Below the pieces are notes generated by a model. It worked only from the letters and a program-made list of their open reading frames with translations. It was not told the origin of the DNA and did no database searches. This document shows, in pieces, positions 4,764-6,060 of a stretch of 10,589 nucleotides of DNA (positions are counted from its first letter, which is position 1; each line of letters starts with the position of its first letter). Both the position numbers and the translations under genes were made by a program. This stretch comes from a virus (Duplodnaviria > Heunggongvirae > Uroviricota > Caudoviricetes): the IMG/VR virus record IMGVR_UViG_2609459825_000010, one strand, 5' to 3'.

Positions 4764-5138
4764 ATGCTCATAGATTTGGTTTTACCTTACCCGCCGACGG
4801 TGAACACTTACTGGCGACGCCGTGGCAGCACATATTTTATCTCGGAGGAGGGAAAGCGTTATCGCCGGGCTGTGGCGCTTATTGTTCGCCAGCAGCGGCT
4901 GAAATTAAGCCTGTCCGGAAGGCTGGCGATAAAGGTGATTGCAGAGCTTCCGGATAAGCGTCGTCGCGACCTGGACAATATCCTGAAAGCACCGCTGGAT
5001 GCGCTGACGCATGCGGGAGTGTTAATGGACGATGAGCAGTTTGATGAAATCAATATCGTTCGTGGTCAGCCAGTATCTGGTGGACGTCTGGGGGTGAAGA
5101 TTTACCCCATAATGCTTGAAGGGCAGGTCAAAAAATGA
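4764..5138 (+). CDS. rusA: Holliday junction resolvase RusA
   Basis: MLIDLVLPYPPTVNTYWRRRG...PDKRRRDLDNILKAPLDALTHAGVLMDDEQF...GGRL aligns by eye with E. coli RusA (LPWPPSNNRYYR...[23 protein letters not shown]...DD.QV...GGRL), including the acidic catalytic residues. RBS AAGAGG 6 nt upstream. Confidence 0.85.
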   Translation: MLIDLVLPYPPTVNTYWRRRGSTYFISEEGKRYRRAVALIVRQQRLKLSLSGRLAIKVIAELPDKRRRDLDNILKAPLDALTHAGVLMDDEQFDEINIVRGQPVSGGRLGVKIYPIMLEGQVKK

Positions 5139-5956
5139 AACTGGAAGATTTACCGAAATACTACTCCCCAAAATCCCCCGGCCTGACTGATGCATCGGCC
5201 TCAACGTCGAAAGATGCGCTGAGTATCACTGATGTGATGGCCGCGCAGGGCATGACACAGAATCGGGCTGAGATGGGGTTTTCTGCGTTCCTTGGTAAAA
5301 TGGGCATTAGTATGAATGACAGAGAGCGGGCAACAGAATTGCTGACAGAATATGCACTCAGTCGGTGTGATCGCGTGGCGGCGTTAAGAAAACTCCCGGC
5401 AGAAATAAAACCGGTAGTGATGCGCATTATGGCTTCGTACGCTTTTGAGGATTATGCCCGCAGCGCAGCGAGTAAAAAGCAGTGCCCTTGTTGCTATGGG
5501 GAAAAATTTATTGAAAGCGTAGTTTTTACAAACAAGGTCCAGTATCCGGATGGTAAGCCGCCGGTATGGGCAAAGTGTACGAAAGATGTGTATCCGTCTT
5601 ACTGGGAAGAATGGAAAAAAGTCAGGGAGGTGGTAAAAGTTGCCTGTCCGGAGTGTGGCGGAAAGGGTGAGGTTTCCACCGCCTGTAAGGATTGCCGTGG
5701 GCGTGGTGTCGCCATTCATCGTGAAGAGTCGGTAAAACGTGGTATGCCTGTTATCAGAGACTGCCAGCGTTGTGGTGGTCGTGGCTGTGAAAGACTACCA
5801 TCAACGGAGGCATTTAATGCCATATGCAAAGTGACGAGTGCTATCACGCTTGATACGTGGAAAAAATCAGTGAAACGCTTTTACGATACGTTGGTGGTTC
5901 GGTTTGACATTGAAGAGGCATGGGCGGAGCGGCAGTTAAAGAGGGTAACGCGATAG
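5135..5956 (+). CDS. Late-gene antiterminator Q-like protein (273 aa) with three CxxCxGxG repeats
   Basis: Sits immediately upstream of a strong promoter plus terminator, as Q-PR'-tR' does in lambdoid phages. Overlaps the rusA stop (ATGA). Contains CPECGGKG, CKDCRGRG, CQRCGGRG and an additional CPCC. Size resembles the long Qin-type Q (from memory). Confidence 0.65.
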   Translation: MKLEDLPKYYSPKSPGLTDASASTSKDALSITDVMAAQGMTQNRAEMGFSAFLGKMGISMNDRERATELLTEYALSRCDRVAALRKLPAEIKPVVMRIMASYAFEDYARSAASKKQCPCCYGEKFIESVVFTNKVQYPDGKPPVWAKCTKDVYPSYWEEWKKVREVVKVACPECGGKGEVSTACKDCRGRGVAIHREESVKRGMPVIRDCQRCGGRGCERLPSTEAFNAICKVTSAITLDTWKKSVKRFYDTLVVRFDIEEAWAERQLKRVTR

Positions 5957-5961
5957 TGTTG

Positions 5962-5989
5962 TTGATTTTTCCCGAATCTGTGGTAAATT
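5962..5989 (+). promoter_or_regulatory. Putative late promoter PR' (-35 TTGATT 5962-5967, 16-nt spacer, TGn extended -10 with TAAATT 5984-5989)
   Basis: Near-consensus sigma70 elements directly after the Q stop (5956). A qut-like site would be expected to overlap or follow it. Confidence 0.55.
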
Positions 5990-6038
5990 TGCTCTAACGA
6001 TGGGCGTTTTATGCCTGACGTTAGAAGATTTTTTACAC

Positions 6039-6060
6039 CCCGCCGCCTGGCGGGTTTTTT
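6039..6060 (+). terminator. tR'-like intrinsic terminator
   Basis: Hairpin CCCGCC-GCCT-GGCGGG followed by T6, about 45-65 nt downstream of the predicted PR' start. This gives a short leader RNA analogous to lambda 6S RNA. Confidence 0.6.

Follow-up and report, generated by a model that had tools for sequence, protein, structure and literature searches.

A probable lambda-type late-gene control cassette with a four-knuckle Q antiterminator in an Escherichia coli lambdoid prophage

A 10,589-nucleotide (nt) stretch of Caudoviricetes DNA (IMG/VR record IMGVR_UViG_2609459825_000010; hereafter the window) contains an open reading frame (ORF) with repeated cysteine motifs, followed by a candidate promoter and a terminator-like hairpin. 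The locus raises the question of whether this ORF encodes an antiterminator that acts on the adjoining promoter, and whether the short RNA expected between promoter and terminator has a function in its own right, as an original prediction made from the DNA letters had proposed. Our analysis indicates that the region is very probably a lambda-type late-gene control cassette of an E. coli lambdoid prophage, made up of the antiterminator gene Q, the late promoter PR', a sigma70-dependent pause element and the terminator tR', all on the plus strand. The cassette is an unannotated member of a well-known kind of system.

The Q protein and its cysteine knuckles

The Q gene (5135-5956) encodes 273 amino acids (aa) and its ATG overlaps the stop codon of rusA (ATGA). 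Its sequence places the product among the Q antiterminators, in the Q-lambda family. The profile of PF03589, which is the Q-lambda family (Yin et al. 2022, PMC9388147), matched the protein in two stretches with 171.4 bits against a cut-off of 26.7, and the same profile search gave no match to the Q21 (PF06530) or Q82 (PF06323) families, which resemble Q-lambda in regulatory role and in gene position in lambdoid genomes but have no sequence or fold relationship to it (PMC9388147). Searching PDB sequences with phmmer returned lambda Q (7ubm_Q) at an expect value (E) of 3.8e-39; the lambda Q structures 7ubm, 4mo1 and 7ubj were matched at E=4e-39 to 3e-19, in blocks that flank an insertion. Residues 1-113 align without gaps to lambda Q 1-113 and residues 182-273 to lambda 116-207, and pairwise alignment gave 39% identity with a single gap of 66-68 residues in lambda. 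An AlphaFold2 (AF2) model, for which 40 homologues were the input (mean predicted local distance difference test 80.1, predicted template modelling score 0.65), was matched by 7ubn_Q in Foldseek (E=6e-14, template modelling score 0.71 on the target), and the remaining significant matches were lambda Q too. Near-identical copies of the gene (99.8% DNA identity) are labelled 'antitermination protein' in RefSeq. The earlier assignment of the protein as a Q-like antiterminator is thus borne out by the profile search, the lambda Q match and the structural comparison, and is narrowed to one family.

The helical body, the N-terminal nozzle segment and the zinc-ribbon arm of lambda Q all have homologous counterparts in the window Q. 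In lambda, the N-terminal segment refolds with NusA into a torus, or nozzle, at the RNA-exit channel (PMC9388147), and residues 1-44 of the window Q (5135-5266), which align to it without gaps and contain many columns invariant across clades, including G39, probably serve the same function. The C-terminal L268 and T272 (lambda L202 and T206) are conserved as well. The original prediction had described three CxxCxGxG repeats and, as an extra, a CPCC. The motifs are indeed present, at residues 117-124 (CPCCYGEK, nt 5483-5506), 171-178 (CPECGGKG, nt 5645-5668), 184-191 (CKDCRGRG, nt 5684-5707) and 210-217 (CQRCGGRG, nt 5762-5785), and at least three CxxCxGxG motifs were found in 0 of 20,000 shuffled versions of the protein; the CPCC, however, is not an addition, but the first of four CxxCxG knuckles (CPCCYG). 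None of the eight knuckle cysteines varies among 40 homologues of 55-94% identity. Knuckle 1 is CPCC (C117 and C120, followed by YG; 5483-5494) and knuckle 2 is CPEC (C171 and C174, within CPECGGKG; 5645-5656), whilst knuckles 3 (CKDC, 5684-5695) and 4 (CQRC, 5762-5773) lie in a lambda-type zinc-ribbon arm (residues 182-218; 5678-5788) that aligns to lambda Q 116-152. Across clades, their cysteines C184, C187, C210 and C213 never vary, and each has its counterpart in one of the lambda knuckles, CRDC and CGRC. The lambda arm (residues 114-152) is a structurally solved 'type I shuffled zinc ribbon' that touches positions 11-13 of the Q-binding element (QBE), sigma region 4 and the zinc-binding domain of the beta' subunit (PMC9388147).

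Knuckles 1 and 2 belong to a 68-residue insertion relative to lambda Q (residues 114-181; 5474-5677), located at the junction of body and arm by the break in the phmmer match at 113/182 and by the pairwise alignment. According to DSSP on the AF2 model, the two knuckles flank a long beta-hairpin with strands 125-136 and 159-170, the tip of which (about residues 137-158) varies in length among homologues. Knuckle 2 starts right after strand 159-170, which in the model is the partner of strand 125-136, and this strand pairing between the knuckles suggests that they share one zinc ion. On the model, the four knuckles would most probably coordinate two zinc ions, one for each consecutive pair (1+2 and 3+4), with knuckles 3 and 4 forming the lambda-type arm and knuckles 1 and 2 clamping the beta-hairpin module at its base. 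From its location, the insertion may contact RNA polymerase, at the beta' zinc-binding domain, or may act as a purely structural buttress for the arm.

We compared the Q clades in an alignment of the window Q, lambda Q, YdfT of E. coli K-12 and proteins from nine further loci (L027, L033, L042, L043, L046, L049, L055, L062 and L068). Both extra knuckles are present in representatives of every non-lambda clade sampled (K-12 YdfT/QuuQ, Providencia, Edwardsiella, Pantoea, Phytobacter, Kluyvera and Pectobacterium), and among all clades compared only lambda and its near-identical copies are without the first two knuckles. Lambda alone lacks the insertion; therefore, the long form is the usual state of the family and lambda Q a short exception. 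For those who work on Q, this means that the solved lambda protein is a stripped-down exception, whereas the other sampled clades have a second invariant four-cysteine module.

Late promoter, pause element and leader RNA

The predicted promoter PR' consists of a -35 hexamer TTGATT (5962-5967), in the same register as TTGACT of lambda PR' and TTTACT of related loci, a 16-nt spacer TTTCCCGAATCTGTGG (5968-5983) that includes an extended -10 TG (5981-5982), and a -10 hexamer TAAATT (5984-5989) identical to that of lambda PR'. Its start point (+1) would be at about A5996 in the lambda register. From there runs a predicted sigma70-dependent pause element (5996-6004), a -10-like AACGAT at +1 to +6 and a discriminator-like GGG, again identical to lambda, in which AACGAT is the cause of the sigma70-dependent pause and GGG is likewise discriminator-like (PMC4005639). 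During Q loading in lambda, sigma region 4 is moved to a -35-like TTGACT (PMC9388147), and the presumed equivalent in the window, at the corresponding position, is TTGCTC (5989-5994). The original prediction had called PR' a near-consensus extended -10 promoter, which is not the case: the hexamers match in four of six positions each, with the TG, and PR' was absent from a simple promoter scan because of these partial matches. Taken alone, PR' would be weak evidence; it is credible because its core is identical to that of lambda PR', not because of consensus. The arrangement GGTAAATTTG-N4-AACGATGGG (5982-6004) is shared with lambda, GGTAAATTTGCTCTAACGATGGG in the window and GGTAAATTTGACTCAACGATGGG in lambda PR' differing only at four positions between TTTG and AACGAT; it occurs once in the window and in none of 200 window shuffles.

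Related loci point in the same direction. We gathered 79 loci encoding relatives of Q, one genome per species, about 50 of which have a recognisable pause element; in most of these, AACGATGGG is present without mismatch, and TTTCCSGAAWCTGTGKTAAWTT lies just 3' of Q in 30 loci of many genera. The promoter spacers form classes that match the Q clades: TTTCCSGAAWCTGTG in the long-Q clade (30 loci, Escherichia to Erwinia), a TTCAAAAA type in the QuuQ clade, a AAAGTGGCGAT type in a Kluyvera clade and TTGAATAAAATTGGG in lambda, to which the spacer of the window is unrelated. The spacer class co-varies with the Q clade and thus behaves as expected of a Q-binding element; by analogy with the lambda layout, the spacer between -35 and -10 is the candidate QBE of the window. 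The QuuQ/YdfT protein of the K-12 element Qin and the Q of Shigella phage SfV (250 aa) are long-form Q-lambda proteins with four knuckles too, and their leaders start with AACGATGGG and measure 63-65 nt; in SfV, a putative rho-independent terminator is annotated at the site homologous to tR'. These systems differ from that of the window in protein sequence (about 40% identity), in a shorter insertion and in a spacer of class TTCAAAAAAnATGG... In most relatives outside Escherichia (loci L005-L040), an inverted repeat (e.g. GCTCACG...CGTGAGC) lies between the Q stop codon and the -35, 30-70 nt 3' of the stop; it is absent from the window, and could be a terminator or processing site of the Q transcript, or a protein-binding site.

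The intrinsic terminator tR' (6039-6060), found by terminator scan and folding, has a 6-base-pair all-G/C stem and a 4-nt loop (CCCGCC-GCCT-GGCGGG, 6039-6054) followed by T6 (6055-6060). The region has only slightly more terminator-like sites than expected (9 against 3.6 +/- 2.0), so the weight of tR' comes from its conserved position in related loci. The predicted leader would extend from 5996 to about 6060, the T-run ending at +65. About 43 of the 50 related loci would make leaders of 49-71 nt from a terminator at the same relative place, and therefore a leader of about 65 nt is the family norm; seven have leaders of 103-166 nt, some of which share sequence with the long leader of lambda. 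A PR'/tR' unit with a leader of about 65 nt, as originally predicted, is hence backed by lambda and by some 50 related loci. In lambda, the hairpin and T-run lie about 190 nt past +1, unlike in the window; the lambda leader, 6S RNA, is 194 nt long.

We propose that the cassette would operate as lambda does, its constitutive promoter, sigma-dependent pause and intrinsic terminator following the same logic as read from the sequence. PR' (5962-5989) would fire constitutively, and RNA polymerase that still bears sigma70 would pause at about +16 to +18 as sigma region 2 rebinds AACGAT-GGG at +1 to +9. Without Q, transcription would terminate at tR' and release the leader of about 65 nt. Q, made from the early rightward transcript, would bind the promoter spacer and engage the paused complex, whereupon its N-terminal 44 or so residues would refold into a ring at the RNA-exit channel, with the help of NusA as in lambda. 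With the RNA threaded through the Q ring, terminator hairpins would be unable to form, and polymerase would pass tR' and later terminators into the cargo, then the lysis and structural genes.

The 66-nt leader RNA folds with a minimum free energy of -21.9 kcal/mol (z = -2.8 against shuffles) into a 5' hairpin, a single strand and the terminator. The 5'-terminal hairpin (5996-6022), supported by the fold and by family conservation, has an outer stem AACG/CGUU and an inner stem GGGCGU/AUGCCU, and is followed by a 16-nt spacer UAGAAGAUUUUUUACA (6023-6038) that is unpaired in this fold. In the outer stem, AACG(A) of the pause element pairs with (U)CGUU about 20 nt downstream, and such a hairpin is found in lambda (locus L001, 788-810) and about 37 other loci. 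Because MAFFT gave no single columns for the 3' arm, pairs were counted by a script that took the invariant TT as its anchor. Across 39 distinct leaders, pairing holds in 170 of 195 cells; sliding the 3' arm by 1-4 nt lowers this to 37-88. Position 4 of the stem is G-C in 28 leaders, A-U in 6, G-U in 2 and unpaired in 3, and position 3 is C-G in 34, U-A in 1, U-G in 2 and unpaired in 2. Three or more unrelated promoter classes show compensatory changes (AAUGA/UCAUU, AACAA/UUGUU, AACAG/CUGUU). In some E. coli variants, AATAAT breaks the stem and nothing compensates for it; the constraint is therefore real but not absolute. The hairpin is not mentioned in PMC9388147 or PMC4005639, and older literature may describe it. 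It could shield the 5' end of the leader or late mRNA from RppH and RNase E. It could also, once threaded, be a folded plug or 'stopper' that locks Q on the elongation complex and blocks back-slipping of the RNA; Yin et al. describe re-threading as impossible 'especially after RNA folding' (PMC9388147). That the hairpin functions as an RNA element in all late transcripts of the lambda type, or that the leader is an Hfq-dependent small RNA (sRNA) in E. coli carriers, or both, is a joint proposal to which we attach a low probability. For the study of Q, what the family comparison adds is that the pause element is embedded in a covarying 5' hairpin; neither this nor the long form as the norm overturns the current picture of Q.

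A small ORF within the leader (ATG at 6000, 22 codons, MGVLCLTLEDFLHPAAWRVFYD, running past the terminator) was rejected as a gene, because its ATG is part of AACGATGGG in every relative and in lambda reads MG-stop in frame, and because the peptides are unrelated between loci, lack a Shine-Dalgarno sequence and have their ATG inside the 5' stem.

Weighing other readings of the locus

The cysteine repeats could be taken for a DnaJ-like chaperone or thiol-disulfide domain and not a feature of an antiterminator. The likeness noted in the original prediction does exist at the level of the motif: DnaJ_CXXCXGXG (PF00684) and the DnaJ model TIGR02349 give sub-threshold matches, Foldseek places the window Q model weakly on DnaJA2 (E=0.39), and one homologue (P0060) is labelled 'chaperone protein DnaJ' by its source, which is a mislabel. 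Like the window Q, as modelled, the cysteine-rich (CR) zinc-finger domain of DnaJ has four CxxCxGxG-type repeats that bind two zinc ions, but the pairing in DnaJ is nested (1+4 and 2+3) where that of the window Q appears to be sequential, and the window Q has a hairpin of about 50 residues between repeats 1 and 2. The scores stay below their cut-offs (26.2 against 32.7 bits for PF00684, 21.9 against 377 bits for TIGR02349), and the TIGR02349 match is limited to profile positions 138-197, the cysteine-repeat region; the families returned were PF03589 and sub-threshold PF00684, with no match to a J-domain model or to any DnaJ region outside the repeats. Moreover, knuckles 3 and 4, which are two of the three repeats in the original prediction, make up the zinc ribbon already solved in lambda Q, a fact that the DnaJ comparison had overlooked. 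With all scores under the cut-offs and no J domain or C-terminal client-binding domains, membership in DnaJ is effectively refuted, and a chaperone or thiol-disulfide domain is extremely improbable. In another reading, the two-knuckle insertion might be an extra DNA-reading head that sets the QBE specificity of the long-Q subfamily. It sits at the base of the arm, beside residues whose lambda counterparts touch the beta' zinc-binding domain and QBE positions 11-13, and the long-Q clade has its own conserved spacer. However, the Pectobacterium Q of locus L046 (271 aa, with a lambda-like body) has the insertion and yet a near-lambda spacer, TTGACAAGTTGAATAACATTGGGTAAATT, downstream, which disfavours the insertion as the determinant of specificity. 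Clades with differing spacers all have the module, and the hypervariable length of its tip is unlike a base-reading surface; we regard such a role as unlikely. A working cassette must also be set against a decaying remnant, in which Q or PR' is dead and the features are fossils of a cryptic prophage. Many E. coli prophages are defective, homologous modules are known from plainly cryptic elements, K-12 Qin among them, and the minus strand of the window has a transposase-like fragment (310-747). Several of our observations weigh against the cassette as we read it: this prophage may itself be defective, given the insertion-sequence-like transposase fragment at the left end of the window and lysis genes that lie outside it; the PR' hexamers are weak and were missed by the scan; of the -35-like element for sigma region 4, only TTG remains; and the proposed zinc pairing derives from a predicted secondary structure. 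The Q ORF, however, is intact and full-length with all invariant family residues, promoter, pause element and terminator all fit the family pattern without a mismatch, and full-length copies occur in 2,479 genomes and in the phage records mEp460_ev081, Evi, vB_EcoS-640R1 and Stx2_EH1910. We consider decay improbable, and a lambda-type control cassette remains the reading we prefer.

The original prediction had further pointed to StxS, described as a short PR' leader with regulatory activity in Shiga toxin (Stx) phages, and had suggested that the window leader may likewise be functional. By this reading, the leader of about 65 nt would be a trans-acting, Hfq-dependent sRNA acting on host or prophage mRNAs in lysogeny. 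StxS (EcOnc15) is indeed the PR'-tR' RNA of the Stx1 and Stx2a phages Sp15 and Sp5; it binds Hfq, activates rpoS and represses stx1B, and its authors see antiterminated promoters as a source of sRNAs (PMC7547250). The comparison is thus correct in outline, but StxS is 258 nt long and is processed to 74 nt. Both RNAs would arise from premature termination at an antiterminated late promoter in lysogeny, which for StxS is documented (PMC7547250) and for the window is read from sequence. They differ in that StxS is cut by RNase E to its 74-nt Hfq-bound form and has the targets rpoS and stx1B. The leader was searched by blastn against 50,697 phage records. Of the 37 records that matched, the 30 listed were either phages with this type of Q or cases of short mosaic fragments, and no similarity to phages of the Sp5/933W type appeared among them. 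On the Rfam and blastn comparisons, which involve no direct alignment to StxS, the relation between StxS and the window leader is one of analogy of origin, not homology. The leader does have the shape of an Hfq sRNA, with a 5' stem-loop, a single strand containing AGAAGA (ARN-like) and U6, and a terminator with a U-tail, and it occurs in about half of complete E. coli genomes, with 934 records at least 99% identical. Nevertheless, a scan of the whole window against Rfam 15 (E<=1) returned nothing in 5957-6100, and the leader is unannotated in all records examined, including K-12, APEC O1 and O157:H7. Among E. coli variants the spacer U-run changes (AUUUUUU, AGUUUCU, GGUUUUU) whilst promoter, pause element and both hairpins are nearly fixed, so that the single strand is the least conserved transcribed part of the leader; most other genera have a spacer of just 4-6 nt, too short for a seed. 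The cis functions of pause element and terminator already account for the conserved parts, and the sRNAs reported from similar prophages sit elsewhere, for instance PasD/STnc100 beside the esterase gene. No description of the leader was found in the literature on StxS, EcOnc, Pas sRNAs, lambda 6S RNA or quuQ, nor any report there that it binds Hfq, accumulates stably or has mRNA targets. A trans-acting role is therefore not favoured, and we consider it improbable.

PasD, which is linked to PF03589 Q genes, was considered as a candidate for the leader and rejected; it is the STnc100-like RNA at 8343-8552 (+; Rfam STnc100 145.6 bits, gathering score 47). A 2026 preprint reports that the prophage sRNAs PasD1 and PasD2 of enteropathogenic E. 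coli are related to STnc100 and lie near PF03589 Q genes and an esterase gene. This STnc100-type RNA, and not the PR' leader, is the documented Hfq-type sRNA of such a late region. A separate observation concerns a 30-nt piece of the leader (6008-6037), covering the 3' half of the 5' hairpin and the spacer, which is 93% identical to positions 1501-1530 of a locus of phage 2851 (L091) and recurs in 1717, Nil2 and several Stx2c/Stx2a phages. These phages have a different, 162-aa, Q21-type Q. The match was rejected as a shared RNA: it lies about 150 nt past their own Q21-type terminator, has no terminator itself and adjoins transfer RNA (tRNA) genes. We take it for a recombination scar left by the exchange of modules.

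Distribution and neighbouring genes

Of 5,426 complete E. coli genomes, 2,626 carry the Q gene and leader (2,479, or about 46%, at a coverage of at least 80%), nearly always on the chromosome, and so do seven phage genome records. As a routine gain for annotation, PR', the pause element, tR' and the leader of about 65 nt can be marked 3' of the 'antitermination protein' gene in about 46% of complete E. coli genomes. Similarity among the E. coli copies often stops just after the terminator, which fits exchange of Q-PR'-tR' as one module. The Stx2a phage Stx2_EH1910 carries the same Q (92% DNA identity) and leader upstream of stx2AB, in the order leader, small ORF, methylase, three tRNAs, stx2AB and esterase gene. 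With stx2AB behind this Q/PR'/tR' in at least one Stx2a phage, toxin output from phages of this kind would depend on this uncharacterised Q subtype and not on the well-studied Q933 and Q21 types.

In the window, Q is preceded by a DUF968 gene (3702-4751) and the RusA gene (4761-5138), which agrees with the usual place of Q-lambda genes, between the nin/rusA region and the late (lysis) genes. Near-identical prophages have DUF968, RusA and Q, then tRNAs, esterase, holin and lysozyme; the lysis genes of the window itself would lie past its end, holin and lysozyme being known from these sister prophages. The cargo after tR' begins with a 69-aa ORF (6171-6380) and an AraC-family regulator gene (6451-7227, +) that is YdeO/GadX/HilD-like, with 92 and 88 bits, far below equivalog cut-offs. 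The AraC-type gene has its own promoter-like site (ATGATA-16-TATAAT, 6451-6478) and fills the slot held by a DNA methylase or stx2 in sister prophages; its product might act as a prophage regulator of the Psr-like kind, controlling acid resistance or type III secretion. Three tRNA genes follow (7256-7505, +), with a CAT anticodon, Arg-TCG and Arg-TCT. The first is called Met by ARAGORN and tRNA-Ile in the annotation of sister prophages. Such a trio is typical of Stx-phage late regions, and a terminator-like hairpin (7520-7537) comes after it. Further downstream are a gene for a TerB-domain protein (7676-8107, +; 59.8 bits) and, just past the STnc100-type RNA, that of a NanS-p-type sialate O-acetylesterase (8764-10566, +; 600 aa, DUF1737-SASA-DUF6645).

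Upstream of the cassette, a hok/sok-type toxin-antitoxin locus (2929-3104 and ORF 3042-3254, +) was recognised by an Rfam sok match of 112.4 bits (gathering score 59); the Hok-like ORF overlaps this match, and hokD is annotated there in near-identical prophages. A weak Rfam match to isrK (3263-3344, +; 27.8 bits against a gathering score of 50, E=0.009) could be chance, although its position upstream of DUF968-RusA-Q is suggestive. In the Salmonella prophage Gifsy-1, IsrK controls the Q-like antiterminator AntQ.

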